This document shows, one piece after another, positions 15,031 through 37,693 of a stretch of DNA of 64,000 nucleotides (positions are counted from its first letter, which is position 1; the number at the start of each line of letters is the position of its first letter). The notes beneath the pieces were generated by a model that searched no databases, was not told where the DNA came from, and saw only the letters and a program-made list of their open reading frames with translations. The translations under genes were made by a program, and so were the position numbers. Source of the DNA: Bdellovibrionota bacterium (GTDB lineage: Bacteria; Bdellovibrionota_G; JALEGL01; DATDPG01); assembly GCA_963668355.1 (NCBI GenBank), contig OY764265.1, positions 288,111 through 352,110 of the forward strand, given 5' to 3'.

Positions 15031-15086
15031 CAATATGTCGCTTTTTTCGACGATGCACGCTCAAACTTCCTTATAGTCGTTTGGTG
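15031..15086 (+). promoter_or_regulatory. copy 8 of the bipartite motif, in the opposite genomic orientation to the other copies
   Basis: Sequence is caatatgtcgcttttttcgacgatgcacgctcaaacttccttatagtcg. Same element order and 13-nt spacing as the other copies when those are read on the minus strand. Confidence 0.5.
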
Positions 15087-16548: not shown

Positions 16549-19095
16549 TCATCGCTGCCATAGAATTCGCCCTTCTTCCAGTGGGATCGCAACGCCCTTG
16601 CTGTGGGGAATCACGCGCACTGTATAGTCGGTTGAAGGTCGAGCCGCGGATACAGACATGCGGTATACGTGGCTGCCCGAAGTGTCGGCCTGTTGACGAA
16701 CGTGGTCCATCTCATGGCGTACGGGGGGAGCACCCATGTCACCGTCGGCATAGAGCTCTACCCGCACCGCATTGGGGTCGAGATCATGAAGATCAATTTG
16801 GACCTCAAAAACGTGTTGTTCCTTGTGAGTCTCAACCTTCACTTCGCGAAACTGCAGCGCACTCCATTTCTGTTCTAGATTGTGCTGCCAATCGAGCATT
16901 TGCCTGCCGATTTGTCCGTTCTCGGCCATACGCAAACGGTAGGCGGCAGCGGCTGGCAGATAGTATCGATCCGTGTATTCGCGCACGGTGCGGTCCGCAG
17001 AAAAGCGCGGAGTCAACTGAGCCATGCTTTCCCGCATGCGTTTCATCCATGCGATGGGAATGCCATTCTTGTCTCGGGAATAGAATTCGGGAATCACTTC
17101 ATGTTCGAGCAGGTCATAGAGCGCGGCCGCTTCGGCCGCATCCCATTCGGGATCGTCGCCATGCTCTTGGCCGTCCCCCAACGCCCAACCCACTTCTGGT
17201 GTGTAGGCTTCTGCCCACCAACCGTCCAATTCCGAGAGGTTGAGGCCTCCGTTGACGAGTACCTTCATTCCGCTTGTTCCGCTCGCCTCCCAGGGTCTTC
17301 GTGGTGTGTTGATCCAAACGTCCACTCCCCGCACCAGTTGCTCCGTCAACCGCATGTCATAGTCGTTCAGAAAGGCGATATGGGGTCGGACCTCCGGGCG
17401 GCGAATGAACTGAATCCATGCTTGGATCAACGCTTGCCCCGGCCGGTCCTCCGGATGAGCTTTGCCGGCGATCATGAGTTGCACCGGACGATCGGGATTT
17501 GCCAAGATACGCAGCAAACGCGCCGGATCGTGCAGCAGTAAGTTGGGTCTCTTGTAGCTTGCAAAGCGGCGGGCAAAGCCCAGGGTTAGAGCTTGGGGAT
17601 TGAACAAATTTTTCGCCAGATCAATCTCCTCGGAAGACGCGCCGCAAGAGGTGAGCTGCCGTGACAATCGTTGGCGGGCGTATGTAACCAGAGACTTGCT
17701 GGCGGCGACACGAAACTGCCAGAGTCTGGTGTCGGAAACCTGCCGAATGTCCTGTTCCAAAGTTTCATTCGTCCCCAGCCAGCGGTCCTTGCCGGCGGCT
17801 TCCGTCCAAAGATCGTCAGCGGGAGCCGAATCCCAGGTCGGCATGTGGACACCATTGGTCACATGCCCGATAGGAATCTCTTCCTTGGGCCAGTGAGGAA
17901 AGAGCGGTTCGAAAATATGTCGGCTTACTTGGCCGTGCAAACGACTCACGCCGTTGACCGCACCGCTGCCGCGCACGGCAAGATAGGCCATGTTGAAACT
18001 CTCCGATGAGTCATTCGGGTTCTGCCGTCCCAGGGCCAGCAAATCATGAATGGTGATGCCAAGCTTTTCTTGAGCGTAGCGACCCAGGTATTGCTCAATC
18101 AGAGCCGGAGCGAAAAGGTCAAAACCCGCCTTTACCGCCGTGTGGGTTGTGAAAAGATTTCCCGCTCGGGTGACAGCCAGCGCAACATCAAAGGCCTGCT
18201 GCGCTTCTTCCATAAAACTCCGAGCCCTTTCCAACACGGCAAAGGCCGCATGACCTTCGTTTAAATGACAGACTTCCGGTTGGATGCCCAACGCACGCAG
18301 CAGTCGCCATCCGCCGATCCCGAGGAGCAGTTCCTGCTTGAGACGCAGCTCCGACCCTCCGCCATAAAGTTCGCTGGTAATTCCTCGATGAGTAGGAAAG
18401 TTCGCCGCGTCGTTGCTGTCCAGGAGGTAAAGCTTCACCCGACCCACCTGTACCTGCCAGGCACGAAGCCAGACCGCGTAACCGGGCAGGTCGATTTTAA
18501 GTCGCAACCATTCGCCATTCGCCTGCCGCAACGGTGTGATTGGTAACTGTCCAGGGTCGTTATAGGGATAGAGCGCCTGTTGCGCTCCGTTCTTGTCGAT
18601 GACCTGGCGAAAATAACCTTGCTGGTAGAGAAGTCCCACGCCGACCACCGGCACACCCAAATCGCCGGCAGCTTTGAGCTGATCGCCGGCTACGTTGCCC
18701 AACCCTCCCGAGTAGATGGGTAAAGCTTCACTCAACATGAACTCCATACTGAAATAGGCGACACAGGTGAGGGGACTCCGGGAATGCTTTCGTTGAAACC
18801 ACGCGGGCGCCTCCACGGCCTTCCGCCGGTTCTGCACCAGGTCATCAACTTTTTTATGAAAAACGGGATCAGCCATGACACGCTCAATCCGTTCGCGCGA
18901 GACCGTTTGAAGAACGACCCAGGGGTTATGCGTGATTTCCCATAACTCGGAATCAAGTTCTCGCCACACATGATCGGTGGCATGATTCCATGTGGAGCGC
19001 ATGTCCAAAGCCAGCTCGGCCAGGGAGTCGAACCCCTCAATCTCCGTGGGAAGAACATTATATAGAGGATGGTCGGCACGGGTCTGTTTGTTCAC
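16549..19095 (-). CDS. glgP: alpha-glucan (glycogen/maltodextrin) phosphorylase, GT35 family
   Basis: 848 aa. Has GGLGNVAGDQLKAAGDLGVPVVGVGLLYQQGYF and the large alpha-1,4-glucan phosphorylase family architecture. Confidence 0.9.
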   Translation of the reverse strand: MNKQTRADHPLYNVLPTEIEGFDSLAELALDMRSTWNHATDHVWRELDSELWEITHNPWVVLQTVSRERIERVMADPVFHKKVDDLVQNRRKAVEAPAWFQRKHSRSPLTCVAYFSMEFMLSEALPIYSGGLGNVAGDQLKAAGDLGVPVVGVGLLYQQGYFRQVIDKNGAQQALYPYNDPGQLPITPLRQANGEWLRLKIDLPGYAVWLRAWQVQVGRVKLYLLDSNDAANFPTHRGITSELYGGGSELRLKQELLLGIGGWRLLRALGIQPEVCHLNEGHAAFAVLERARSFMEEAQQAFDVALAVTRAGNLFTTHTAVKAGFDLFAPALIEQYLGRYAQEKLGITIHDLLALGRQNPNDSSESFNMAYLAVRGSGAVNGVSRLHGQVSRHIFEPLFPHWPKEEIPIGHVTNGVHMPTWDSAPADDLWTEAAGKDRWLGTNETLEQDIRQVSDTRLWQFRVAASKSLVTYARQRLSRQLTSCGASSEEIDLAKNLFNPQALTLGFARRFASYKRPNLLLHDPARLLRILANPDRPVQLMIAGKAHPEDRPGQALIQAWIQFIRRPEVRPHIAFLNDYDMRLTEQLVRGVDVWINTPRRPWEASGTSGMKVLVNGGLNLSELDGWWAEAYTPEVGWALGDGQEHGDDPEWDAAEAAALYDLLEHEVIPEFYSRDKNGIPIAWMKRMRESMAQLTPRFSADRTVREYTDRYYLPAAAAYRLRMAENGQIGRQMLDWQHNLEQKWSALQFREVKVETHKEQHVFEVQIDLHDLDPNAVRVELYADGDMGAPPVRHEMDHVRQQADTSGSHVYRMSVSAARPSTDYTVRVIPHSKGVAIPLEEGRILWQR

Positions 19096-20768
19096 GATTT
19101 CTCCCTTACGAATGTCTTGGACTCAATACTCTCCAGGGCATGACTGACGACAGTCTGAGCTTCCGCCACGATGCGACGAAGATGATCGGCACCCAGAAAG
19201 CTCTCCGCATAGATCTTGTAGATGTCTTCTGTCCCGGACGGACGGGCCGCAAACCATCCGTTTTCGGTCATGACTTTGAGCCCGCCGATCGGAGCGTCGT
19301 TTCCAGGTGCGCGGGTGAAACACGCTTGAATCTTTTCACCGGCTAAGTCGGTGAGCTTCACCTGATCCGGCGAGAGATTCTTCAACAACTCCTTTTGTCC
19401 TGGCGTGGCTGGCGCTTCGACGCGGTCATAAAACGGCTCCCCGAACTCGTGCGTGAGTTCGCGATACAGTTGACCGGGGTCTCGATCCATCCGCGCCGTG
19501 ATTTCGCCGGCGAGCAAGGCCGGGACGATTCCGTCTTTGTCGGTGGTCCAGACACTGCCGTCCATACGCAGGAAAGAGGCTCCCGCACTCTCTTCGCCTC
19601 CGAAGCCAAGCGAGCCATCGAGTAAACCGTCGACAAACCACTTAAACCCGACCGGCGTCTCATAGAGTTTTCGACCCACCTTGGCGGTGACACGATCGAT
19701 CATCTGGCTGCTCACCAACGTCTTGCCCACGGCAGCCTCCCTGGACCAGTTAGGTCGGTGTTGAAAGAGATAGAAGATGGCCACCGAAAGGTAGTGATTG
19801 GGAGGAAGTAGTCCGGTGCTAGGGGTGACAATGCCGTGCCGATCGTGGTCGGTATCGCAAGCAAAGCCGATGTCGAAACGGTCCTTCAGTTCGATGAATT
19901 TTTGCATGGCGTAGGGTGATGATGGATCCATGCGGATCTGGCCGTCCCAATCCACCGTCATAAAACGGAACGTCGGGTCGACGGTCTCGTTCACGATCGT
20001 GAGGTTCAACCCGTAGCGTTCGGCAATCGGTTCCCAGTAGTGGATCCCGGCGCCGCCGAGTGGATCGACCCCCAGGTTGCTCTTCGCGGCGCGAATGATG
20101 CCCATGTCAATTACATTTCCAAGGTCGTTGACATAGGCATTGAGATAATCGTGCCGGTGCGTCGTAGGGGCGCGGAGGGCTCTTTCGTAGGGAATTCTCT
20201 TCAAGCCCGGAAGGTCATTTTCAAGAAACTCGTTGGCCTTGGTTTCAATCCACCCGGTGATGCCCGATTCTGCCGGCCCGCCGTTGGGGGGATTGTATTT
20301 GAACCCGCCGTCATGGGGCGGGTTGTGTGACGGCGTGATGACAATCCCGTCGGCAAAGCCCGACGTGCGTCGGCGATTGTACGTGAGAATCGCGTGGGAA
20401 ATGACAGGCGTTGGCGTGTATTCATCTCCCTTCGCGAGCATGACTTCCACGCCGTTTGCCGCCAGAACCTCGAGCGCGGTGGCCAGAGCCGGCACGGAAA
20501 GAGCATGCGTGTCCATGCCGAGAAACAGTGGGCCACCAATATTCTTCTGCTTCCGGTAGAGGCAAATGGCCTGACTGATGGCCAGGACATGTTGTTCGTT
20601 GAAGGCCTTTTCAAACGCGCAACCGCGGTGGCCCGAGGTGCCGAAGGCCACCCGTTGTTCGGGGACGAAGGGATTCGGTACTTCCGTATAATAAGCCGTA
20701 ACCAGTTTCGGTACGTCTACCAGCATCGATGCTTCGGCCGACTTTCCTGCATAGGGGCTTACGGTCAT
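19092..20768 (-). CDS. pgm: phosphoglucomutase (alpha-D-glucose phosphate-specific)
   Basis: 558 aa. Active-site TPSHNPPHDGGFKYN and the Mg loop FDGDGDR-like region. ATGA overlaps on both sides. Confidence 0.9.
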   Translation of the reverse strand: MTVSPYAGKSAEASMLVDVPKLVTAYYTEVPNPFVPEQRVAFGTSGHRGCAFEKAFNEQHVLAISQAICLYRKQKNIGGPLFLGMDTHALSVPALATALEVLAANGVEVMLAKGDEYTPTPVISHAILTYNRRRTSGFADGIVITPSHNPPHDGGFKYNPPNGGPAESGITGWIETKANEFLENDLPGLKRIPYERALRAPTTHRHDYLNAYVNDLGNVIDMGIIRAAKSNLGVDPLGGAGIHYWEPIAERYGLNLTIVNETVDPTFRFMTVDWDGQIRMDPSSPYAMQKFIELKDRFDIGFACDTDHDRHGIVTPSTGLLPPNHYLSVAIFYLFQHRPNWSREAAVGKTLVSSQMIDRVTAKVGRKLYETPVGFKWFVDGLLDGSLGFGGEESAGASFLRMDGSVWTTDKDGIVPALLAGEITARMDRDPGQLYRELTHEFGEPFYDRVEAPATPGQKELLKNLSPDQVKLTDLAGEKIQACFTRAPGNDAPIGGLKVMTENGWFAARPSGTEDIYKIYAESFLGADHLRRIVAEAQTVVSHALESIESKTFVREKS

Positions 20769-21467
20769 ACTTGTTCCTTGGGAGCCGTGCGATGGAGCAA
20801 TGCCTCTCGTTCGAAATGAACAAGATCACCGATGTGCTCAATCGAAATATCAGCGCGCGGAAATGTGGTCACCACCTTGCGGTCGAGAGCATAATGTCCC
20901 TGGCGGGGCCAAACCGTGGTTAACCTCTCGCCCCAAAATTCCTTCATGGCTGTGAGGATTCGAAGTTTATCGTCAACCATCACGTAATGGCTCGCTGGAT
21001 AGCGCTTTTCGATTTCATCGAGCATCTGCTCTTTATGAATGTAAATCAGCACACGGCCCTCAACTGCGTCCCAGAGTCCCGATCGTTGAACCTTCCGCGG
21101 CTGGAAGACGGCGTCGCCATCGGTAAGAATGACCGTCGGTCCCCAGAGCCCAGCGCGCGTAAGAACTTTGAAAGCATCAGGGTATAAACGGTCCGCAAAG
21201 GGGTAATCCATCAGATACGAAGACATGGTCAAGAGTCGCGGGTCGAACCGTTCTTCGAGGCGGTAGCGCTGCAGAGTTCCCAGATGGTCCGAGTACCCAC
21301 ACTCAGCGTGCAACTCTTCAAAAATGGCCCAGTACCGTTCTTGAACGTCAGCCCCGAACTCATGCTCAAGATGGCTCTTAAGATCATTCTGTACGACATC
21401 GTTGTCGAGCAACGTGTTGTCAACATCGAAAAGAAATACCATGTTTTCCTTTGCCATCATCCCAGAA
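20765..21467 (-). CDS. HAD-superfamily hydrolase (phosphatase), first gene of the HAD-pgm-glgP operon
   Basis: DxDxT motif FLFDVDNTLLD near the N-terminus. The ORF-track extension LWGVEPPRSTPPSSG is translation of the upstream hairpin element and is unlikely to be real. Confidence 0.75.
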
Positions 21468-21470
21468 CTC

Positions 21471-21545
21471 GGGGGAGTGGAGCGGGGGGGCTCCACTCCC
21501 CAAAGCACAAAACTATTGTTTCGTGCTCATTTCGGGCGAAAGGAC
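21471..21545 (-). promoter_or_regulatory. structured leader element B, copy 1: an 8-bp hairpin with a (A/C)ATAG loop followed by an 11-bp GC hairpin (GGGGAGTGGAG / CTCCACTCCCC)
   Basis: About 85% identical to 27113-27186. Sits immediately 5' of the HAD start codon. Wobble and compensatory changes in hairpin 1 preserve pairing between the two copies. Confidence 0.45.
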
Positions 21546-21592
21546 AGGCGCTCCATTTCTTGAATCCAGCCAATGTATATCTTGGTACCCCA

Positions 21593-21644
21593 CCGTCGAC
21601 GATAAGGAAGTTTCTTCGTATATCATCGGAAAAAGTGACATATC
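21593..21644 (-). promoter_or_regulatory. copy 2 of the bipartite motif, upstream of element B and the HAD-pgm-glgP operon
   Basis: Sequence is ccgtcgacgataaggaagtttcttcgtatatcatcggaaaaagtgacatatc. Confidence 0.5.
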
Positions 21645-21697
21645 GAGAGGACCGGGCCTAGTGGCTTCACGGTCCTCCTGAGGTTGATATGGCCTGT

Positions 21698-22147
21698 CTA
21701 TGAGACTTTGACCTCAATCGCCTTGGGCTTGGCTTTTTCGCTCTTCATGAGCCGAACATTCAATACACCATCCTTGAACTCGGCTCGGACGTTACCTTCT
21801 TCTACATTTTCCGGCATCGTGAAGGTTCGAAGGAAGGATCCGTACAAACGCTCGACGCGATGAAACTTCTTCCCCTTCTCTTCCTTTTCCTGATTCCGCT
21901 CGCCCTGAATCCGAAGGATTCCGTTATCCACCGAAACTTTGACATCATCCTTTTTCACCTCCGGTATCTCCACTTTGAGAATGTATTCCTCCGGGTTCTC
22001 GATAATATCAACGGTCGGCGTCCAATCCGGAGCGGTAAGCATTTCTTTACCTGTTTCCGCACGAACCACGGGTCGACCAAAGGCTCGATTTAGGCGATCG
22101 TTCATTTCTTCCAATTCATGATATGGATTCCAACGAGTTAATTGCAT
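21698..22147 (-). CDS. Hsp20/alpha-crystallin family small heat-shock protein
   Basis: 149 aa, alpha-crystallin domain, ends ...AKPKAIEVKVS. Confidence 0.9.
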   Translation of the reverse strand: MQLTRWNPYHELEEMNDRLNRAFGRPVVRAETGKEMLTAPDWTPTVDIIENPEEYILKVEIPEVKKDDVKVSVDNGILRIQGERNQEKEEKGKKFHRVERLYGSFLRTFTMPENVEEGNVRAEFKDGVLNVRLMKSEKAKPKAIEVKVS

Positions 22148-22244
22148 GACGGTTCTCTTTCCTGGGCAGCTCTGTAGGAAATGAACGACCTTGGGAAGCT
22201 GCGCCTTGGCCCAGGGCCGTTCATCTTACGAGTTACGCTGTAGA

Positions 22245-22445
22245 TTATTTGGATTTGTTTGGCGTTTTTGTAACGTCGCGTTCCGCCGCGAACCAGTCCT
22301 CTTGCTCATGGCCGGATCCAAAGCCGCGCTTTTCCGCCTTGTAATAGGCATCTTTTGCCACCTTGGCGTGGCAGTCTGTATGGGTCTGACAGTCTTTTTC
22401 GTGTGGCTGCTTTGTTTTTGAGCCAGTCTTTGGTTTTGTTTTCAT
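22245..22445 (-). CDS. DUF2934-family small protein (paralog of 28888-29091)
   Basis: 66 aa. HAKVAKDAYYKAEKRGFGSGHEQEDWFAAERDV matches the DUF2934 pattern AYxxxExRGxxxGxxxxDWxxAE. SD AAAGGAG. Confidence 0.6.
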   Translation of the reverse strand: MKTKPKTGSKTKQPHEKDCQTHTDCHAKVAKDAYYKAEKRGFGSGHEQEDWFAAERDVTKTPNKSK

Positions 22446-22552
22446 GGGCTATTTCTCCTTTTGAATACGTATTTCATTCAATTTAAACATTTGTTCTCGA
22501 AATTGTTTCGCCATAGTCGAGGAAGCCTCTATTTACAGGCAACCTCAACCAC

Positions 22553-22602
22553 CAACTATGAGGAAGTTTCATCGTATAGCGTCGGAAAATACGACGTATA
22601 GA
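22553..22602 (-). promoter_or_regulatory. copy 3 of the bipartite motif (divergent region between DUF2934 and 22847)
   Basis: Sequence is accaactatgaggaagtttcatcgtatagcgtcggaaaatacgacgtatag. Shares an extended upstream box TTTACAGGCAnCnTCAAnCACC with copy 1. Confidence 0.5.
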
Positions 22603-22846
22603 ACGCCGATCACGGAGTTACAGCTCATCTCGAGAGTACTTGAGAAAAGGCATAATTGAAGGCCTTGATATCGCTTTCGGACATCTCGAGGCTATAGCTT
22701 CGTGAAACAAGATCAACTCCAACCTATCGCTTTTTACGACCCTACGCGTTTGAATTTCCAAATAGTCAATAGACCCCTGGGACACGTAAAAGGAAACCTG
22801 ACGATTGCTGTCTTATGAGACTTGTAGAAGAAAGTAGGAGTACGTT

Positions 22847-23128
22847 ATGGAAAACAAAAAAGAACACATTGGAAACATGGAAAAGAAACTCACACAATGG
22901 GGTAAAACGCTCGATGAACTCACGGCCAAGGCTGAGAAAGCCGGCGGTGATGCGAAGAGTGATTACCGCAAGGGAGTCGACGATCTAAAAGCGAAATACA
23001 AATTCACTCAAACCAAACTTGCGAAATTTAAAACCGGAAGCAGCGAAAACTGGGACACGTTCAAGACCGGGATTGAAAATGCCTGGGATGAGCTTGAAGA
23101 GACGTTCAAGAAGCTTACGAATCAGTAG
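22847..23128 (+). CDS. hypothetical small hydrophilic coiled-coil protein (93 aa)
   Basis: SD AGGAG. Lys/Glu-rich, with no TM segments. Confidence 0.5.
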   Translation: MENKKEHIGNMEKKLTQWGKTLDELTAKAEKAGGDAKSDYRKGVDDLKAKYKFTQTKLAKFKTGSSENWDTFKTGIENAWDELEETFKKLTNQ

Positions 23129-23142
23129 GGAGGAAGTGAATC

Positions 23143-23313
23143 ATGTTATGGACCCTTGCGATCCTCTTTATTCTAATTTGGGGGCTTGGCCTAGCCACCT
23201 CGTACACACTGGGTGTTTACCTTCACGTGTTGGTCGGACTGACGGTCGTGCTACTCCTACTTCGGATCATTCGGGGTGGTCGCCGCGAGGAAAAACCAAA
23301 AGTCTGTCCCTAA
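23143..23313 (+). CDS. lmo0937-like small membrane peptide (56 aa); not in the supplied ORF track because it is under 60 aa
   Basis: GGGAGGAAG SD 6 nt before the ATG. MLWTLAILFILIWGLGLATSYTLGVYLHVLVGLTVVLLLLRIIRGG matches the MLWT...IHLLLV...RG small stress membrane peptide family. Confidence 0.55.
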   Translation: MLWTLAILFILIWGLGLATSYTLGVYLHVLVGLTVVLLLLRIIRGGRREEKPKVCP

Positions 23314-23386
23314 GGTAAGCTCAGCTGTAGGCCGATGAAATCCGGATCCATGAGTATGGAAGTCGTCTTCATCACTGGTTTCGCTA

Positions 23387-24124
23387 GTGGCTATGACTAA
23401 GAAACGCAACCGGCTAAAGATGGCAACGGCTTCCTTTGTCTTTATTTTTGCGGCGCCGAATCTTGATTTTAAATCCGAGGACATCCGATCTAAGCTTCGT
23501 GAGGTACCGAACGCGACCAAACTGACCGAAATCGTCGACGCAAGAACGTTTGTGGTTGAGACGAAACCCAAATCGATGGTGGCTAGGCCGGTGGTTTTCG
23601 TCTACTTGTTGGATCATTTGGAGGAGTGTGCCACAGCGGGAAAAGCACTAGGCCTTTCCACCTATAAAGCTCGGCGGGAACCTGATCAACGACTTTTTGG
23701 TGATGACGGTCATGGGGTCTCGGGTTACTTAACCATTGTTCGAGCCGGGAACGGAGAGAGAATCATTTTTTTACAGCAAGAAATCGATGGGGTACTTACG
23801 ATCGGAGGGGAGGCGGTCATCCTGTTGACCTATCAACTCAAGGTTGGAGCCCTTTCTCCCACGGGTACCGAATATCGCTTGCGGGGTTGGATTCGTCTCA
23901 ATAATCCCATTCTGGCTTTTTTTAGTCGCATTTTTGCTGCCAGAGCCCGTCTCGTGGCGAAACGACAACTTATGCGGATGCTCGGAGTGCCTGTGGCGGT
24001 GGCCCAAGCCATTGAGAGCAATCCGGATGGAATCCTGGCAAGGCTGGAAGAGTCCTTCCCGGATGAAACCGCACCCGTGGGGCCTTTGATCAACTTGATT
24101 CGCCGTGAATACGCAAAACCATGA
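23387..24124 (+). CDS. hypothetical protein (245 aa)
   Basis: ORF with coding-like composition; no family recognised by eye. Confidence 0.4.
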   Translation: MAMTKKRNRLKMATASFVFIFAAPNLDFKSEDIRSKLREVPNATKLTEIVDARTFVVETKPKSMVARPVVFVYLLDHLEECATAGKALGLSTYKARREPDQRLFGDDGHGVSGYLTIVRAGNGERIIFLQQEIDGVLTIGGEAVILLTYQLKVGALSPTGTEYRLRGWIRLNNPILAFFSRIFAARARLVAKRQLMRMLGVPVAVAQAIESNPDGILARLEESFPDETAPVGPLINLIRREYAKP

Positions 24125-24174
24125 AACGTTCACCAGGTACATCCAACTTTGAATGCATCCAACAGGTGAACGGC

Positions 24175-24738
24175 TTAAGGCGTGGTTTTTTCGGCTGGGG
24201 CCTTGGAAGAAAGATCCTCCAAAATCGTCATTTGAAGTTCCTGAATTTCCAAAAGTCGTTGCCACTGATGAGATACCAATCGGTCGAGTTTGTCGTTGAT
24301 CACGCCAACTTCAATTTCCGTTTTTAGGTTGATGCGATAGTCATTTTCGTCACGCTGGCGATCCCGCGCTTCCAATCGATTCTGGCTCATCAAAATGATT
24401 GGGGCCTGTAGGGTGGCCAAGGCGGAAAGAATTAAATTCAAAAAGATATAAGGATAAGGATCGAAGGGGTGACGAAGAATCAGAAGAGAATTAAGCAGAA
24501 CCCATCCTAACAACACGCTGCCAAAAAGCATAAGGAAGGTCCAACTCCCTCCAAAACTGGCGACGTGATCGGCCAGACGCTCTCCAAGCTTTAGTTTTCC
24601 CTGAGATTTTTCTTCTGCATTCGACGCTGCAGTTTCTCGTTCATGCAAAGCTCGTGTCATTTCATGATTGAGTTCGGATAGTTCCTCCTTTTCTTTTCGA
24701 AGAATTTGGAGGAGTTGTTCGTTTTTGCTGGATGTCAT
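24175..24738 (-). CDS. DUF1003-family membrane protein
   Basis: DPYPYIFLNLILSALATLQAPIILMSQNRLEARDRQRDENDY is the DUF1003 signature. Confidence 0.7.
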   Translation of the reverse strand: MTSSKNEQLLQILRKEKEELSELNHEMTRALHERETAASNAEEKSQGKLKLGERLADHVASFGGSWTFLMLFGSVLLGWVLLNSLLILRHPFDPYPYIFLNLILSALATLQAPIILMSQNRLEARDRQRDENDYRINLKTEIEVGVINDKLDRLVSHQWQRLLEIQELQMTILEDLSSKAPAEKTTP

Positions 24739-25094
24739 GATGGATTGGGCTCGGCAGGGCGATGAATTGCCCTATGATTTTTGCCATCGCGTTTTCGTCC
24801 TTGCGTGTTCTCGATCAATCTGGCCAGTTTGTCGAGGGCGCCGTCAATGGCATGATCCAGAGTTGTGGCCTGATGAGTTACCGCGATGGGTTGGCTCTTC
24901 TTGAGACGCGCTTCCATCATGCACCGCTTATCGTGCGAACCGATCTTGGGACCGTTTTCGTCACTGAGGTGAATCTCCACACGGGTGATGTGTTCGCTGA
25001 AGCGGCTCAGGGTGTTTTCGACGGTGTCATGGACATAAGTGCCCAGTGCCTCGGAAACATCGATACTATGGTCAGAATTGATTAAGACTTGCAT
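24735..25094 (-). CDS. hpf: ribosome hibernation promoting factor / RaiA family protein
   Basis: MQVLINSDHSIDVSEALGTYV...ITRVEIHL...AIDGALDKLARL has the HPF/YfiA fold signature. ATGA overlap with the DUF1003 gene. Confidence 0.7.
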   Translation of the reverse strand: MQVLINSDHSIDVSEALGTYVHDTVENTLSRFSEHITRVEIHLSDENGPKIGSHDKRCMMEARLKKSQPIAVTHQATTLDHAIDGALDKLARLIENTQGRKRDGKNHRAIHRPAEPNPS

Positions 25095-25115
25095 GGGGAT
25101 CTCCTATCATGATCG

Positions 25116-27108
25116 CTACCCGGGATTAGTGGCCATCCCGTAAAGAATATGCAGAGTGAAAAGAAGGGAAATCTGTGCTTCTCGGAATAACGTTCCAAAT
25201 ACACGGTGGAGCGGAATGTGAAACCATTTTCGTTCATTCCAGCGCTTCGCCATGGCCTGCCAAAAACAATCCAGATCTTGGCGCGTGTAAACTTTGTTGA
25301 TGGACAAGGCCGGATACCACTTGGTCCAGAACAAGCGAAGTTTGGAGGGAACCTTTAGAGACGGAAGTTGCACTTTGGTGCGAAGATGGGCCAACTGGAT
25401 GTCGGCCAACTTCAAACTACCACGCGCCGTTGCACAGATTCGATTGATTTCCTGTGCAATCAATCGTTCTGCTTGCGTGGACTGGCGGGTCTGCAACCAG
25501 ACCTCTTGCATCTCTCTCACCACGCCAAACATTCGGACAAGCTGCACGGATACTTCTTTTATACGCATTTTGAAGAACTCCCACCAACCCTGCACAGGAT
25601 ATCCCGGGCGGCGATCTTTTCGCTTTTTCAACTGAAACAAACCACACATCATGGGGTGGCGTTTCTCAGTCTGGATCGAATTCTTGCACCACATGAAACG
25701 AACAAGATTGTTCCAATAATTTCGCTGCGAACTTCTTTGCAGAACCTTTTTCATGTTTTCGAGGCTGTAAAAGCTATGCCAGGCCTCGTGGTAAAGTTCC
25801 GTCCAGAGGCCATCCTTTAAATGAGGATGCCTGGTCACAGGATGATCCGAATCGTACAGATTGTAATCCGGATTCATCCATTCGCCGCGTCGAACCATTT
25901 CCATGTGGTCCTTCGAGCCGGGCAAGGGCATGAGCATGAAAAATGAGACATGATCCGGCCGAACCTCATTTTCAAGGTAGTCGAGATCTCGGCGGACCGA
26001 CTCGGGCGTATCGTTTGGGAAGCCGATGATGTAACTCGCGTGGACGGAAATCTCGCGGCTTCGGTAGGCTTCGATGAGTTGGGGGTATTCATCAACGTGG
26101 TTCTGGTTTTTTCCCGTCGCTTTGAGGTTGTCTGGATTAATGCTCTCCATGCCAATGAAGACATTGAGGCAACCGGCACGACGCGCTTTCTCGATAAAGT
26201 TTGGAATTTTCCAGGAGAGAACATCCGCCTGCATCATGAAGCTTACCGGAATCTTTTCTTTCTCTCGCAGGTGGATGAGGAGATCAAAGATCGGTTCCCA
26301 ATTTTTATTGCGAGCGAAGTTGTCATCGGTGAAGAAATAGAAGTTCACACCACGTTGGAGGTAATTGTCTCGCACGGCGGCCGCAATCCTCTCGGCCGAG
26401 CGATAGCGTACTTTCCGACCTTGCACATGGATGATCGTGCAAAAGCCGCACTCGAAGGGGCAGCCGCGGCCACAATCAATGGTACCGAAATTAGAGGCCA
26501 CAAATTTACGTAGATAGTCTTTGCGAACGATGGGCAGGGGTTGATCATAGAGATCTGGTTTGCGGCTGACAAAATCGTAGAGGGGTTCAAGGTTATCGGT
26601 GAGGGTGTCTCGAAGAAGATCCCCCCAGGTATCCTCCACCTCCCCTTTGACCACAGTGACGCCCAGATCCAAGAGTTCCTGAACCTCAGCCGGAATTTCG
26701 GGGCTGAGTTCGAGCGCGCCGCTAACGTGAAACCCGCCGATCATCACCGTAAGCCCCGCATGACGAAACTCTCGCGCCAGATCGACGGCACGGGGAAACT
26801 GATTGGTTTGAACGCCGGCGAGGCAGACCACCGTTTTCGTGTGTCGATTGCGATGCGAGCGGCAGATGCGTCCAACGGGAATATGTTCTACCGTTTCATC
26901 CAGGAGGTGAAGCTTGATTTTTAGGGATGGCCCGAACGCCTTCTTTTGCCTTAGGTCTTCGGTCAGACCGGCCAGACAGGCCAAGGTATTGCTTGGTAAT
27001 ACACCTCGCCAGTGGCGAACCACATAACCGTCGTCGTCATAACGGGAGGGTTTGATTAGGTAGAGTTGAAGCCTCTTGATTCCGGAATATGTTTTCATTG
27101 ATGAACTC
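25116..27108 (-). CDS. B12-binding domain radical SAM protein (class B, long form with a C-terminal extension)
   Basis: N-terminal cobalamin-binding Rossmann-like region, then CGRGCPFECGFC (CxxxCxxC), then a ~250-aa C-terminal domain. The start MSSSMKTYSG is at 27108 or 27096. Confidence 0.8.
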
Positions 27109-27112
27109 ATGA

Positions 27113-27186
27113 GAAAAGGGGGAGTGGAGGGGGGACTCCACTCCCCAAACACGAAACTATGGTCTCGTGCCCATTTCGGGCGATAT
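27113..27186 (-). promoter_or_regulatory. structured leader element B, copy 2, between the OmpA-like gene and the radical SAM gene
   Basis: Sequence is agggggagtggaggggggactccactccccaaacacgaaactatggtctcgtgcccatttcgggcga. In the gene orientation the GC hairpin is followed by CUUUUCUC. Confidence 0.45.
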
Positions 27187-28632
27187 GACGACATCAATTC
27201 GCCGATTCATGGCTCGGCCTTCCGTCGTGGTATTGGGCGCCACCGGTTTGGCGGGTCCGTAACCGACCGAGACGATTTGGGCATTCGTCAAGGTGCGATT
27301 GGCTAGGAAATATTCCTTCACGGCATCTGCACGGGAAAGGGACAAATGCTCGTTCATGGCGGCTGACCCGGTCGTATCCGTATGACCTTCAATGGTCACT
27401 TGCGGCTGTCCGAAGGTGCGGATGGCATGCTGCACCTTGCTTAACAGCGTGTAGTTGTCCGGCATAATTACTGATTTGCCCACCGGAAACCGCATGGCTT
27501 TGAGTCGAATCAGAAGTTGGTCGCCTTGTTTGTAGACCTCGGCATCTTTAGGGTCAAAGTACGAACGCACTTCGCCATAAAGCTTATTAAAACGCTTCTC
27601 CGCTTCCAGTCGAGCCGTGGCCTCTTGTTCGGTTTTGCTGGTGCCTTCTAACGAGGCAATTTTTTGATGAAGATCGGCGTTCGTCATTTCCTGACTCGTG
27701 GTTTTTTCGGCTAGATACATCCGGTCTTTTTGTAGGCCGACAATCGTTCCGTTGATATTTTCCACTTGCGTCTTGAATGTCTGGTTACGCATGTCGGGGG
27801 CAAATAACGTGTTCGCAATTTGGGTCAGCATGTTTTCCATCCAAATCGCCGATTGTTCCGGCGATTTCTTGCGCAGGGCCACGCTTTGGTCGAGCATGTA
27901 TTTCAAACGTTCGGCGTGAAAGATCGCTTCGTTGGCTTTCTTAAGCATTTCCTCTCGGTTGTATCGATTTTGGGAAATGAACGAATCGGCTTCAGCCAAC
28001 TTCTTCTTGGCGAGAGCTAACGTTTCCGGCACCACCTTCTTAGCCTCTCGTTTTTCGGCCTCACCGATAAGGTCACGGGCTTGGCCGAGAGCCTTTTCTT
28101 TAATGGCTCGAAGTTCGAGGTTGCGAAAGCTTTGGGTGACGCGAGGTTGGTTGTTTTTAGCCCATTCGAGATTGTTGTCTTCAATTTCTTTGGTCAGTTT
28201 TTGAAAACTGGCTTCGGCTGCGTCATAGTCTTTACCGAGCGAAGGCGCTCCAGCCGCTTGGGCGTCGTCGCGTGCGGCGATCACGTTTGGCAACGCGGTT
28301 CGGGCCACTCTGGCCATTTCATTGGCTTGCTTAAGCTCTGCCCGTCCCTGACTGACCTCGGCAAAGATGTCATCGAGGCTGCTTCCTTTTTTCTGAAGCT
28401 GCTTGGCCTTAGCTAGTGACGCTTCGGCTTTGGTATATGAAGTGGGCGCAAGTACATTTACTTTCTCGGTTCGTGCCTGATGGACAGCCGTATCCAAAGA
28501 AGAAATTTGTTCGCTGGGATTTGCGGTGGAGGAAATTTTGGTCACATTCAGACTTTTTCCTCCGCAACTCATCAACACGAGAGATGCAAAAAGCATCATC
28601 GTGCGGTTAAAAAGCTGGGTTTTCATGGTCAT
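27157..28632 (-). CDS. OmpA-family lipoprotein with a long coiled-coil region
   Basis: Lipobox LVLMSCGG, about 330 aa of coiled coil, and a C-terminal OmpA domain (GHTDTTGSAAMNEHLSLSRADAVKEYF...NRRIDVVI). Confidence 0.8.
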   Translation of the reverse strand: MTMKTQLFNRTMMLFASLVLMSCGGKSLNVTKISSTANPSEQISSLDTAVHQARTEKVNVLAPTSYTKAEASLAKAKQLQKKGSSLDDIFAEVSQGRAELKQANEMARVARTALPNVIAARDDAQAAGAPSLGKDYDAAEASFQKLTKEIEDNNLEWAKNNQPRVTQSFRNLELRAIKEKALGQARDLIGEAEKREAKKVVPETLALAKKKLAEADSFISQNRYNREEMLKKANEAIFHAERLKYMLDQSVALRKKSPEQSAIWMENMLTQIANTLFAPDMRNQTFKTQVENINGTIVGLQKDRMYLAEKTTSQEMTNADLHQKIASLEGTSKTEQEATARLEAEKRFNKLYGEVRSYFDPKDAEVYKQGDQLLIRLKAMRFPVGKSVIMPDNYTLLSKVQHAIRTFGQPQVTIEGHTDTTGSAAMNEHLSLSRADAVKEYFLANRTLTNAQIVSVGYGPAKPVAPNTTTEGRAMNRRIDVVISPEMGTRP

Positions 28633-28726
28633 GTTCCTTTCGGCACACCGAAACCTGGAAAAACAATTTTTTCAGGGAGAGGTGCTCCATTTTGTGAATC
28701 GACTAAACGTATATCTTGATCCCAGG

Positions 28727-28780
28727 CCGTCGACGATAAGGAAGTTTCAGCCCACTATGTCGAAAAAACCGACCTATTCA
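28727..28780 (-). promoter_or_regulatory. copy 4 of the bipartite motif, upstream of the OmpA-like gene
   Basis: Sequence is ccgtcgacgataaggaagtttcagcccactatgtcgaaaaaaccgacctattc. Embedded in a ~150-bp segment duplicated from the hsp20 3' region. Confidence 0.5.
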
Positions 28781-28887
28781 AAAGGGCCGTGAAAAACGGG
28801 TCTTGCCCGGCCCTCATTGGGTGGATAAGGCCTATCTAAGAGACTGTGGTTTTACCGGCTTTGGGTTTGGCTTCTTAGTCAGGAAAA

Positions 28888-29091
28888 CTATTTTAAGAGG
28901 ATTCCCTTTTTCGTGATGGCACGTTCCGCGGTGAGCCAGTCTTCTAACTCACGGCCGCCGGCAAAACCGCGGTTTTCCGCTTCAAAGTAGGCAGCTTTCG
29001 CGATCTTCGCGTGGTCATCAGCTTGCGTTAGGTTGGCTCGGCCTTTGGTTGAGTTGTTTGTTTTCGCTTCGTTTTTTCGTTTTATATACAT
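28888..29091 (-). CDS. DUF2934-family small protein (paralog of 22245-22445)
   Basis: HAKIAKAAYFEAENRGFAGGRELEDWLTAERAI. Confidence 0.55.
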   Translation of the reverse strand: MYIKRKNEAKTNNSTKGRANLTQADDHAKIAKAAYFEAENRGFAGGRELEDWLTAERAITKKGILLK

Positions 29092-29390: not shown

Positions 29391-29445
29391 CTGGCGACTA
29401 TTCGGAAGTTTAAGTGTGCATTGTCGAAAAAAACGACGTATAGCA
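29391..29445 (-). promoter_or_regulatory. copy 5 of the bipartite motif (LysR / small-ORF divergent region)
   Basis: Sequence is ctggcgactattcggaagtttaagtgtgcattgtcgaaaaaaacgacgtatagc. Confidence 0.45.
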
Positions 29446-29450
29446 GGGGC

Positions 29451-30353
29451 ATGGAATGGCTCAACTACCACCATCTTTTATATTTCTGGGTTGTAGCCAA
29501 AGAGGGAAGTATCGTGGCGGCGAGTCGGCAGTTGCGTCTCGCCCATCCTACCATTAGCGGTCAGATCCATCGGCTTGAGGAAATGCTTGGGCAAAAATTG
29601 TTTACGAAAAAAGGACGGAATATCGTTCTGACCGAAGAAGGCCGAGTGGCCTTTCGTTACGCCGAAGAAATTTTCACACTTGGGAACGAGTTTTTAGACA
29701 CGGTCAAAGGTCAGCCGAGCAGTTGGCCTTTGCGTTTGGTTGTGGGGGTTTCGGATGCCCTTGCCAAGTCCGTCGTGTACAGAATTCTGCAGCCTGTATT
29801 CAGTCTGGACAAGGATGTTCAAGTGGTCTGTCGCGATGATCGTTCGATCAAAGAATTCATGGGGGATTTGGCCTTGGGTGAAGTGGATGTCGTGCTTTCG
29901 GATGCCCCGGCGGGTCCCGGTTCGCCCGTGCGGGCTTTTAGCCATCTTCTTGGTGAGTGTGGCACAGCCTTTTTTGCGGCCCCCGCGCTGGCCAACAAAC
30001 TTCGGCGCAAATTTCCGCAGTCGCTCGATGGTGCCTCTTTTCTAGTGCCAGGCATTGATTCTACGCTTCGCCGAGCGTTGCGGGGATGGTTTGAGAGGCT
30101 GGATATCCAGCCAAAGATTATCGCCGAATTGGATGACGCGGCGCTGGCCAAGATTTTTTGTGAGGCTGGGTTGGGCGTGATGGCGGCCCCTGATGTTAGT
30201 GAGAAGGAAGTGAAGGCGCGCTACCATGTGCAGGTGGTTGGTCGGTCAGAAAAGGTGCGGCAACAAGTTTTTGCGATTTCGCTTGAACGAAAAATCAAAC
30301 ATCCTGCGGTGATCACGATTTGTGAGGCGGCACGGAAGAGCGTTTTTTCTTGA
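29451..30353 (+). CDS. LysR-family transcriptional regulator
   Basis: N-terminal HTH (LNYHHLLYFWVVAKEGSIVAASRQLRLAHPTISGQIHRLEE) plus a LysR substrate-binding domain. The ORF-track start at 29421 overlaps the motif, so ATG 29451 is preferred. Confidence 0.85.
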   Translation: MEWLNYHHLLYFWVVAKEGSIVAASRQLRLAHPTISGQIHRLEEMLGQKLFTKKGRNIVLTEEGRVAFRYAEEIFTLGNEFLDTVKGQPSSWPLRLVVGVSDALAKSVVYRILQPVFSLDKDVQVVCRDDRSIKEFMGDLALGEVDVVLSDAPAGPGSPVRAFSHLLGECGTAFFAAPALANKLRRKFPQSLDGASFLVPGIDSTLRRALRGWFERLDIQPKIIAELDDAALAKIFCEAGLGVMAAPDVSEKEVKARYHVQVVGRSEKVRQQVFAISLERKIKHPAVITICEAARKSVFS

Positions 30354-30955: not shown

Positions 30956-31156
30956 TTATTGTTTGGGAAGGGATTTTTGAAAAGCAGCGATTTCTTTTTC
31001 GACATCCGATTTAGAACGTTTGTAAACTGTGGACACTTTATTGGCTAGGATCGACATGTCTTTTCCAATTGTGCGGATGTCGCCCTCGCTTAGCTTTTCC
31101 CATTTAGCATGAATTTTTTCACTTAATGTTGTTTCTGAACCTTTGGATTCGGTCAT
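30956..31156 (-). CDS. CsbD-like general stress protein (66 aa)
   Basis: SD AAGGAG. MTESKGSETTLSEKIHAKWEKLSEGDIRTIGKDMSILANKVSTVYKRSKSDVEKEI resembles the CsbD family. The longer ORF-track version has an implausible N-terminus. Confidence 0.6.
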   Translation of the reverse strand: MTESKGSETTLSEKIHAKWEKLSEGDIRTIGKDMSILANKVSTVYKRSKSDVEKEIAAFQKSLPKQ

Positions 31157-31223
31157 CTTAATTCTCCTTGAAAACGATTTGGTAGTTGTATTTGAATGTC
31201 CTGTATATCGATGATGGCGCTCA

Positions 31224-31268
31224 ATAAATATGAGGAAATATGAAAGAAAGGCGTCGACAAAAACAACG
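31224..31268 (-). promoter_or_regulatory. copy 7 (weaker) of the bipartite motif, upstream of the CsbD-like gene
   Basis: aatatgaggaaatatgaaagaaaggcgtcgacaaaaacaac. Retains the TTTTTGTCGACG half and a TTTCCTCAT box at 13-nt spacing. Confidence 0.3.
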
Positions 31269-31498
31269 TGTATGAAAACGTGCCTGTTGTTCGTTTTTTG
31301 CCAACCCGGCTGAGCAAAAAACACCAAAGGCATTCTTGAAATCGCAGCCTCCGATGGGAGCCCGGAAACCCCAGCTTATTTGCTGGATCATGCCTACGCA
31401 GTTGCACCTGATGTTCTTAAAGCCGCACGCAATGCACAGAATTTATAAGTCGGGGGGGCAGGTAGGGACCTGCCCGCGACTTACAGTTTCTCGCATTC

Positions 31499-32552: not shown

Positions 32553-32610
32553 CCATCGACCATGAGGAAGTTTCATCGTGTAGCGTCGCAAAAAGCGACA
32601 TGATTATTCA
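32553..32610 (-). promoter_or_regulatory. copy 6 of the bipartite motif (SPFH / GGDEF divergent region)
   Basis: Sequence is ccatcgaccatgaggaagtttcatcgtgtagcgtcgcaaaaagcgacatgattattc. Confidence 0.5.
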
Positions 32611-33592: not shown

Positions 33593-33598
33593 AATTAA

Positions 33599-33635
33599 GG
33601 TGCGACTCCGCTACAAATGGCGTCCCCAAGGGGAC
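33599..33635. repeat. direct repeat containing the 3'-terminal ~17 nt of tRNA-Glu (att-like), copy a
   Basis: ggtgcgactccgctacaaatggcgtccccaaggggac. The tggcgtccccaagggga portion is identical to the 3' end of the tRNA-Glu gene at 37467-37544. Confidence 0.6.
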
Positions 33636-37165: not shown

Positions 37166-37180
37166 TGACCATATATGTAT

Positions 37181-37221
37181 GGTGCGACTCCGCTACAAAT
37201 GGCGCCCCCAAGGGGATTTGG
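37181..37221. repeat. direct repeat containing the tRNA-Glu 3' end, copy b
   Basis: ggtgcgactccgctacaaatggcgcccccaaggggatttgg. Preceded, like copy a, by tgaccata. Confidence 0.6.
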
Positions 37222-37435
37222 CCAATTTTCCCCTGGCCTTCGGCCAGATGAAAAATGTGGCATAAGAATCTCTAATTCGCTTTGCTCATAAGAGCTTCTA
37301 AAACCCCACGGGGTTCGTCGCCTTTCGGCGACAGACTTGTGTTGAGCAAAGAGCCCCACCCATTTCATGGGTCCCCGGTTCTCTTTGTTCTATTGCTATG
37401 GCAAGTTCAAATCCCCTCTTAAAAATGACAAACTA

Positions 37436-37464
37436 AAAAGCCCATCCGAAGATGGGCTTTTTAG
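37436..37464 (-). terminator. rho-independent terminator (bidirectional-looking) just 3' of tRNA-Glu
   Basis: AAAAAGCCCATC-cgaa-GATGGGCTTTTT. Confidence 0.55.
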
Positions 37465-37466
37465 TT

Positions 37467-37544
<78 letters not shown>

Positions 37545-37618: not shown

Positions 37619-37693
37619 TGGTGAGCCAGGTTGGTATCGAACCAACGACCCTCTGCTTAAAAGGCAGATGCTCTACCACTGAGCTACTGGCCC
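37619..37693 (-). tRNA. tRNA-Lys (anticodon UUU)
   Basis: Manual fold: acceptor GGGCCAG/CTGGCTC, D-arm GCTC-AGTGGTA-GAGC, anticodon loop CTTTTAA, T-arm GTTGG-TTCGATA-CCAAC, encoded CCA. Confidence 0.85.

Follow-up and report, generated by a model that had tools for sequence, protein, structure and literature searches.

A two-hairpin repeat before two operons of a Bdellovibrionota bacterium, probably the gene-end remnant of a duplicated and partly deleted stress-gene module

A 64,000-nucleotide stretch of the genome of a Bdellovibrionota bacterium (GenBank assembly GCA_963668355.1, contig OY764265.1, positions 288,111 to 352,110; hereafter the window) carries two copies of a structured repeat of about 75 nucleotides (nt). 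Copy 1 (21471–21545) precedes an operon encoding a HAD protein, a phosphoglucomutase and an alpha-glucan phosphorylase (HAD-pgm-glgP; locus A, at 21.5 kb), and copy 2 (27118–27189) lies between the gene for an OmpA-like lipoprotein and a radical SAM gene (locus B, at 27.1 kb). In a blastn self-comparison, the copies are 86.7% identical over 75 columns (E = 3e-18), with 10 of the 75 columns differing in the hand-checked alignment, and both sit on the minus strand, as do all neighbouring genes. The initial annotation of this DNA had described two similar copies on the transcribed strand, each with two hairpins and each directly before a start codon; the self-comparison and RNA folding bear this out, and its gene labels (HAD, PGM, phosphorylase, OmpA/DUF4398 and radical SAM) proved broadly right by Pfam. 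The 64 kb hold these two copies only. An nhmmer profile built from both found no third copy in the window, the 11-mer GGGGAGTGGAG has exact matches only in the two hairpin 2 sites, and the homology runs on into the flanks at both loci.

Downstream of copy 1, the HAD-pgm-glgP operon occupies 16549–21460, with Pfam assignments for HAD (20765–21460), phosphoglucomutase (19092–20768) and alpha-glucan phosphorylase (16549–19095). The HAD homologues begin 6–7 residues ahead of the sequence VVFLFDVDNT, which places the true start at ATG 21460, 11 nt past hairpin 2 of copy 1. In the public protein P0241 (HAD, 247 aa), the start is GTG 21508, so that hairpin 2 is translated (MLWGVEPPRSTPPSSG...; window positions 21443–21508, minus strand), and this gene call, which runs through the hairpin, is corrected by the present analysis. 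A start at the third ATG (21442), which has an AAGGA Shine-Dalgarno sequence, was also considered and was rejected in favour of 21460 by the aligned homologue N-termini.

At locus B, the OmpA-like lipoprotein gene (27157–28626, within an open reading frame (ORF) spanning 27157–28632) encodes a DUF4398 plus OmpA protein of 489 aa identical to P0121. It is followed by the radical SAM gene (25116–27098, Pfam PF04055), which starts MKTYSG as in P0001 (100% identity), and then by genes for HPF (24735–25094) and DUF1003 (24175–24738), likewise assigned by Pfam. Copy 2 is thus internal to an operon and overlaps the 3′ codons of the OmpA-like gene, as the initial annotation had it; the last codons and the TAG stop (27159–27157) are covered.

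Each copy comprises two hairpins. Hairpin 2 of copy 1 (21472–21501) is a perfect 12-bp stem with a 6-nt loop (GGGGAGUGGAGC-CCCCCC-GCUCCACUCCCC), and that of copy 2 (27119–27146) is a perfect 11-bp inverted repeat, again with a 6-nt loop (GGGGAGUGGAG-UCCCCC-CUCCACUCCCC). The hairpin 2 stems have the same sequence in both copies (22/22 nt), the two sites rank second and third among the true hairpins of the window, and the hairpin is intact in the minimum free energy (MFE) and centroid structures of both leaders. Hairpin 1 (21503–21528 in copy 1, GAGCACGAAAC-AAUA-GUUUUGUGCUU, with an 11-bp stem in the MFE structure; 27147–27172 in copy 2, GGGCACGAGAC-CAUA-GUUUCGUGUUU) is able to form 11 pairs in each copy. 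The MFE of the 75-nt units is −40.5 kcal/mol for copy 1 and −37 kcal/mol for copy 2, with z-scores of −9.6 and −6.5, respectively, relative to dinucleotide shuffles, and the sense strand of each unit folds better than its reverse complement.

The variation between the copies was examined within the stems. Hairpin 1 differs at four stem positions, all of them single-sided transitions that keep pairing (A-U/G-U, G-C/G-U, G-U/G-C and A-U/G-U); there is no double compensatory change among the four, and the chance probability of such a pairing-preserving pattern is about 0.12–0.22, which is not significant. The G-U pairs work on the sense strand only, which fits the RNA-sense strand specificity proposed in the initial annotation, while its argument from “compensatory” changes in hairpin 1 is weak, as the pattern does not differ significantly from chance and two sequences carry no covariation. 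A closing helix between the 5′ flank and the start-codon region appears in both MFE folds and was rejected, being equalled by 77% of shuffled flanks at locus A and by 18% at locus B. No alternative antiterminator or sequestrator fold was seen competing with hairpin 2 in either leader. An RNA thermometer of the ROSE or fourU kind was rejected as well, given the perfect G+C-rich stem, the −37 to −40 kcal/mol of the element and the placement of the GGAG motifs at least 26 nt from the AUG.

The 5′ third of the repeat is of coding origin. In copy 2, the native 3′ coding end of the OmpA-like gene (27157–27183, minus strand) reads TCG CCC GAA ATG GGC ACG AGA CCA TAG (S P E M G T R P stop), so that the protein ends ...VVISPEMGTRP*, with the SPEMGTRP* tail coming after NRRIDVVI. 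The 5′ arm of hairpin 1 falls within the ATG-GGC-ACG-AGA-CCA codons of this tail, and the TAG stop (27159–27157) supplies the last two loop bases and the first base of the 3′ arm. A tail of 6–11 aa after NRRID(V/L)VI is found in all retrieved OmpA-like homologues, which span several phyla, and the nearest homologues open theirs with SP (ISPTQEAN, ISPVETPLSSE and ISPMPQAG). Because the homologues have a tail at the same place, the nearest ones starting with SP, the SPEMGTRP tail is to be regarded, on sequence comparison, as native to the OmpA-like gene. Copy 1 carries the counterpart (21513–21539, minus strand), TCG CCC GAA ATG AGC ACG AAA CAA TAG (S P E M S T K Q stop), which matches copy 2 in frame and stop position and has no gene upstream of it; it is best read as the leftover of a deleted OmpA-like paralogue. 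The same codons might be taken for a leader peptide (AUG-AGC-ACG-AAA-CAA-UAG in copy 1), a candidate that was rejected: they equal the remnant of the OmpA-like tail, and three of the five sense codons differ between the copies. A second OmpA-like paralogue, P0125 (486 aa, 54% identical, with the tail IKPKAGNVQ), is encoded outside the window on the same 2.92 Mb contig of the source genome, and may be the orthologue of the OmpA gene found in a rho-HU-OmpA context in Bdellovibrionota metagenome-assembled genomes (MAGs).

The homology between the two loci extends well beyond the repeat. Upstream of it, both carry a 47-nt promoter-like element, here called D1. A repeat scan matched 21542–21614 to 28676–28748, upstream of the OmpA-like gene, at 81%, and the blastn self-comparison extended this to 21542–21738 against 28676–28876 (71%, 202 nt). 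The paralogous blocks are, at locus A (21546–21740, minus strand), the 3′ end of hsp20, a terminator-like hairpin, D1 (21599–21645) and the start of the 5′ untranslated region (5′UTR); and, at locus B (28676–28878, minus strand), a 3′ remnant of hsp20, a terminator-like hairpin, D1 (28733–28779) and the start of the OmpA-like 5′UTR. Further upstream lie paralogous DUF2934 genes (22245–22445 and 28888–29091, both minus strand), which align at 74% between 22265–22371 and 28908–29014 by blastn. In order across the two loci, then, DUF2934, the hsp20 3′ end, the terminator, D1, the 5′UTR start, the element and probably GAGUUC-N4-AUG are aligned. The last of these is the HAD start region (21458–21470, minus strand; GAGUUC-UGGG-AUG), aligned with GAGUUC-AUCA-AUG of the radical SAM gene (27096–27108), and marks the probable right end of the duplicated module.

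The two loci differ in which gene of the module each has kept. At locus A, the hsp20 3′ end, the terminator-like hairpin, D1 and the first ~25 nt of the 5′UTR abut the 75-nt element directly; at locus B, the remaining 5′UTR and the OmpA-like coding sequence stand between these blocks. The junction in locus A is the tetranucleotide GTCC (21542–21545, minus strand), which is the 4-nt overlap of two blastn alignments: on its upstream side, locus A corresponds to the OmpA-like promoter and 5′UTR (down to 28676), and on its downstream side, to the OmpA-like 3′ end (from 27189). In a global alignment, 21455–21740 is collinear end to end with locus B after removal of 27190–28675, and the 1486 nt without counterpart in locus A are part of the 5′UTR and nearly the whole OmpA-like coding sequence. 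The OmpA-like gene is thereby missing from locus A apart from its last codons. Conversely, an intact hsp20 gene (21698–22147, minus strand; Pfam) is present in locus A, and locus B lacks about 495 nt of hsp20, keeping, between the DUF2934 gene and the OmpA-like promoter, a remnant of its last ~12 codons and stop (28836–28874, minus strand; EAKPKAGKTTVS relative to KAKPKAIEVKVS in the intact gene). This remnant implies that gene-sized deletions leaving 3′ ends did happen in the duplicated module. Given the collinear homology, the OmpA-like tail in locus A and the hsp20 remnant in locus B, the two loci are paralogous copies of one stress-gene module that probably underwent reciprocal gene deletions.

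At copy 2, hairpin 2 has the anatomy of an intrinsic terminator at a gene end. It begins 10 nt past the OmpA-like TAG and is followed directly by the U-rich tail CUUUUCUC (27111–27118, minus strand), which together with the next base, the A of ATG 27110, makes up the 9-nt stretch UUUUCUCAU. Stem-loop, U-tract and gene-end position are all present, and a consensus scan of the minus strand from 16 to 33 kb placed the site (11 pairs, 8 of them G-C; tail CTTTTCTCAT) first among all terminator-like candidates. The initial annotation had called this hairpin terminator- or attenuator-like within its operon, and on anatomy the terminator scan agrees. Copy 1 lacks the U-tract of an intrinsic terminator: its hairpin 2 is followed by CGAGUUCUGGG, and the 9-nt stretch of locus B corresponds to a 9-nt gap in locus A in the global alignment. 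The radical SAM ATG at 27098 lies 20 nt past hairpin 2, and the alternative ATG at 27110 lies 8 nt past it; at a distance of only 8–20 nt there is no room for a separate promoter, and without a promoter of their own the radical SAM, HPF and DUF1003 genes must be reached by read-through. From its anatomy, then, hairpin 2 of copy 2 would be a partial intrinsic terminator, an intra-operon attenuator in a simple, non-regulated sense.

Rho-independent terminators serve as partial intra-operon attenuators in other bacteria, an example being the Escherichia coli rplL-rpoB attenuator. Copy 2 resembles this type in its G+C-rich stem-loop and U-rich tract, in its position between a stop codon and the next gene of the unit, and in that the genes downstream depend on read-through. 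It differs in that the U-tract is interrupted (CUUUUCUC), and copy 1 differs further, being a hairpin without a U-tract in a 5′UTR.

Taken together, the repeat is most readily understood as the last 9–10 codons of the OmpA-like gene, its stop codon and its terminator hairpin, with the HAD copy as the scar of a deleted duplicate OmpA-like gene; we put the probability of this reading at roughly two in three. It builds on the observed homology and junction, the descent of the repeat's 5′ third from coding sequence, the resemblance of hairpin 2 to a terminator and the gene remnants left at both loci, and takes the event to have been, probably, a deletion rather than an insertion. The ancestral module would have been D1 – DUF2934 – hsp20 – terminator – D1 – OmpA-like – hairpins – next gene, from which each locus would have lost a different gene, OmpA-like in A and hsp20 in B. 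In locus A, the deletion of 1486 nt would have fused the D1 promoter to the leftover gene tail and hairpins, before HAD-pgm-glgP, and loss of the 9-nt U-tract would disarm the copy 1 hairpin and let transcription enter HAD. The resulting 5′UTR would be about 105 nt long if transcription starts just past the TAtAcA box of D1, and copy 1 would be a disarmed relic, its effect on the HAD mRNA being at most stabilising or modestly attenuating. In locus B, transcription is expected to start at the D1-type promoter (28733–28779) and to cross the OmpA-like gene; hairpin 2 and CUUUUCUC would end part of the transcripts, the read-through transcripts would carry radical SAM, HPF and DUF1003, and OmpA-like mRNA would be more abundant than the downstream mRNA.

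Segmental duplication followed by reciprocal gene loss can leave pseudogene or terminator scars in bacterial genomes. The two modules are like such cases in being about 70–87% identical and collinear, each without the gene kept by the other and with the last codons and terminator left behind. They are unlike the usual case in that the scar became the 5′UTR of an unrelated operon and in that the hairpin is unusually well preserved. Since the scar is now the HAD 5′UTR, the stress promoter would effectively have been rewired to HAD-pgm-glgP.

Several points weigh against this interpretation. The element has diverged less than the remaining non-coding DNA of the duplication (10 of 75 differing columns vs 62 of 204; Fisher p = 0.003), and 22/22 stem identity has a probability of about 0.0004–0.01 under local divergence rates, with neighbouring DNA about 30% diverged. 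A neutral relic is expected to decay, so that either copy 1 is selected, or the loss of the OmpA-like gene was recent, or gene conversion has occurred. There is no good Shine-Dalgarno sequence between hairpin 2 and the AUG of either downstream gene, which the interpretation leaves unexplained. That transcription terminates at copy 2 and passes through copy 1 is predicted from the sequence, and the choice of a deletion in A over an insertion in B rests on the argument from the protein tail and on parsimony.

The initial annotation had also proposed that the duplicated element is a cis-regulatory leader in its own right, binding a ligand or a protein. This is not supported: the 5′ third is coding, and the HAD copy is explained by duplication and deletion. 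The searches outside the window bear on the same question. Scans for exact patterns in 596 Gb of genomes and in a metagenome collection, with sensitivity limited accordingly, found no related copies; homologous copies with structure-preserving variation, whose absence the initial annotation had named as refuting its proposal, were likewise not found elsewhere within that sensitivity. A pattern for hairpin 2 (GGGAGTGGAG-N4-10-CTCCACTCCC) retrieved 61 unrelated hairpins, for example a repeat of a Legionella MAG, none adjoining hairpin 1, from a genome collection that does not include the source genome, and the pattern GAAATG-N22-30-hairpin 2 gave four unrelated metagenome matches. Plasmids and phages gave no blastn match. 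Rfam had no match to the whole window at gathering thresholds, and a permissive scan of both copies (E up to 10) returned noise only, the best hit scoring 16 bits against a gathering score of 58.6 bits, on the wrong strand. The source lineage is isolated, its nearest homologues being 58–60% (OmpA-like, in Bdellovibrionota MAGs), 71% (radical SAM) and 75% (HAD) identical. In the Bdellovibrionota MAG relatives, the OmpA-like gene lies in the rho-HU-OmpA context. Neither synteny nor the element nor the D1 motif was seen at the orthologous loci of the OmpA-like and radical SAM genes in the nearest relatives. We count the apparently lineage-specific OmpA-like/radical SAM arrangement among the support for the duplication and deletion.

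The alternative that survives best, though we consider it unlikely, is that the two hairpins together form a cis-acting RNA module kept by selection, which tunes the downstream gene in two operons of one stress regulon, its origin at a gene 3′ end being an exaptation; it could act as a site for an RNA-binding protein or RNase, as a 5′ or 3′ stabiliser, or as a U-tract-independent attenuator. The identical 22/22 stems, the identity of about 87–90% in the element vs about 70% in the flanking duplicated DNA, the retention of pairing on the sense strand only by all four hairpin 1 changes, the placement of both copies 8–20 nt before an AUG without a good Shine-Dalgarno sequence, and the same D1 promoter type driving both operons all speak for it. 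Against it, there are two copies only, and one duplication explains both; the hairpin 1 pattern is not significant (P 0.12–0.22), and neither covariation nor other homologues were found; in one copy, a third of the element is coding sequence; there is no antiterminator alternative, and the closing helix is no better than shuffled flanks; and the remaining six D1-driven leaders are without such hairpins. A more specific version, somewhat more doubtful still, holds that the terminator of the lost OmpA-like gene was exapted, with hairpins 1 and 2 under selection both in the HAD 5′UTR and at the OmpA-radical SAM junction, for example as a site of docking or processing by a stress-specific RNA-binding protein or RNase, or for U-tract-independent pausing or attenuation.

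Among known systems, stem-loops that stabilise mRNA, such as the repetitive extragenic palindromic (REP) sequences between malE and malF, or 5′UTR stabilisers such as the E. coli ompA leader, offer a further comparison. The repeat is like them in having strong hairpins in an intercistronic (copy 2) or 5′UTR (copy 1) position, which could shield flanking RNA from exonucleases, and this likeness would fit the conservation of the stems regardless of the U-tract. It is unlike them in not being a dispersed family, and the copy 1 hairpins lie about 40–95 nt from the presumed 5′ end, not at the end itself.

The polarity of the event might also be reversed, the promoter and two-hairpin leader being ancestral and the OmpA-like gene having been inserted in locus B, where it would have borrowed its last codons and stop. 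The junction itself, with 2–4 nt of ambiguous homology, does not show the direction. We nevertheless regard this as improbable: in other phyla, the OmpA-like homologues have an equally long native tail that starts SP after VVI; genes normally end in just this way, with a stop codon followed at once by a G+C-rich hairpin and its U-tract; and the nearby hsp20 remnant shows that the module has undergone deletions in which 3′ ends were left behind.

A small mobile or REP-like intergenic repeat dispersed in the genome would account for a palindromic, G+C-rich, intergenic sequence found twice within 6 kb, and is very improbable, with just two copies in 64 kb, collinear homology into the flanking promoter and probably to the start codon (unlike a self-contained mobile unit), no terminal repeats or target duplications, and no match in the plasmids and phages searched or in the exact-pattern scans of genomes and metagenomes. 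A leader common to the HAD-pgm-glgP operon and the radical SAM gene that senses a ligand, as a riboswitch or otherwise, has the least to recommend it: the element does sit 5′ of two metabolic genes, folds strongly and, like riboswitches and T-box or leader-peptide attenuators, combines a sense-strand leader position with a terminator-like hairpin, but, unlike them, it has no family match (none in Rfam even at E up to 10), consists of two independent perfect hairpins without a junction, internal loops or a conserved unpaired, aptamer-like core, has no competing antiterminator or other fold that competes with hairpin 2, is partly of coding origin, and was not found by exact-pattern scans in the genomes and metagenomes searched, showing no conservation outside this genome.

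The promoter-like D1 element upstream of both operons recurs across the window. A repeat scan found seven copies in the same orientation (minus strand; 2354–2400, 21599–21645, 22555–22601, 28733–28779, 29397–29443, 31227–31273 and 32559–32605), and blastn added an eighth, inverted copy (plus strand; 15033–15079). The pattern has fixed spacing, namely GTCG-N7-CGAC, which contains a LysR-type T-N11-A box, then N13, AAACTTCC, N26 and TAtAcA; a degenerate version has six exact matches where 0.02 are expected. D1 precedes stress-type genes, namely those for DUF2934, Hsp20, the OmpA-like protein, two HPF proteins and Band 7, as well as HAD-pgm-glgP, and also a 69-aa ORF (30956–31165) without a Pfam match. 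The motif was absent from all 72 fetched loci, Bdellovibrionota relatives included. A LysR-family gene (HTH_1 plus LysR_substrate; 29421–30353, plus strand) is divergent from the D1 copy at 29397–29443 and, by the usual arrangement of LysR-type regulators, may encode the activator of all promoters of the D1 family. The arrangement suggests a LysR-controlled stress island, and D1 is probably a more interesting feature of the region than the hairpin repeat.

Two other direct repeats were observed in the window. The first, of 39 nt (33596–33634 and 37178–37216; 95% identical, 3.6 kb apart), is near two minus-strand tRNA genes (37470–37544 and 37622–37693) and an 18-bp perfect hairpin (37429–37468), and could mark a small inserted element or another duplication. 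The second, of 99 nt (47357–47455 and 47513–47611; 74% identical, 156 nt apart), is probably an internal duplication in a coding region.

Duplication with reciprocal loss that leaves a terminator scar as a new 5′UTR would be a known kind of event and does not call for a new class of regulatory RNA. The locus nonetheless carries a caution, in that a convincing “duplicated structured leader” can be a gene-end scar, the structure-preserving variation here coming from two paralogous copies only. If the hairpins have been exapted, they would co-tune two operons of the LysR/D1-controlled stress island, with the 22-nt stem preservation as the signature. On the duplication-and-deletion reading that we favour, the locus would be a case study of a stress-inducible promoter rewired to a glycogen and sugar-phosphate operon by deletion of the intervening gene, with the old terminator left in the new 5′UTR, apparently disarmed by loss of its U-tract; were the hairpin still functional before HAD, this would be a documented terminator-to-leader exaptation.

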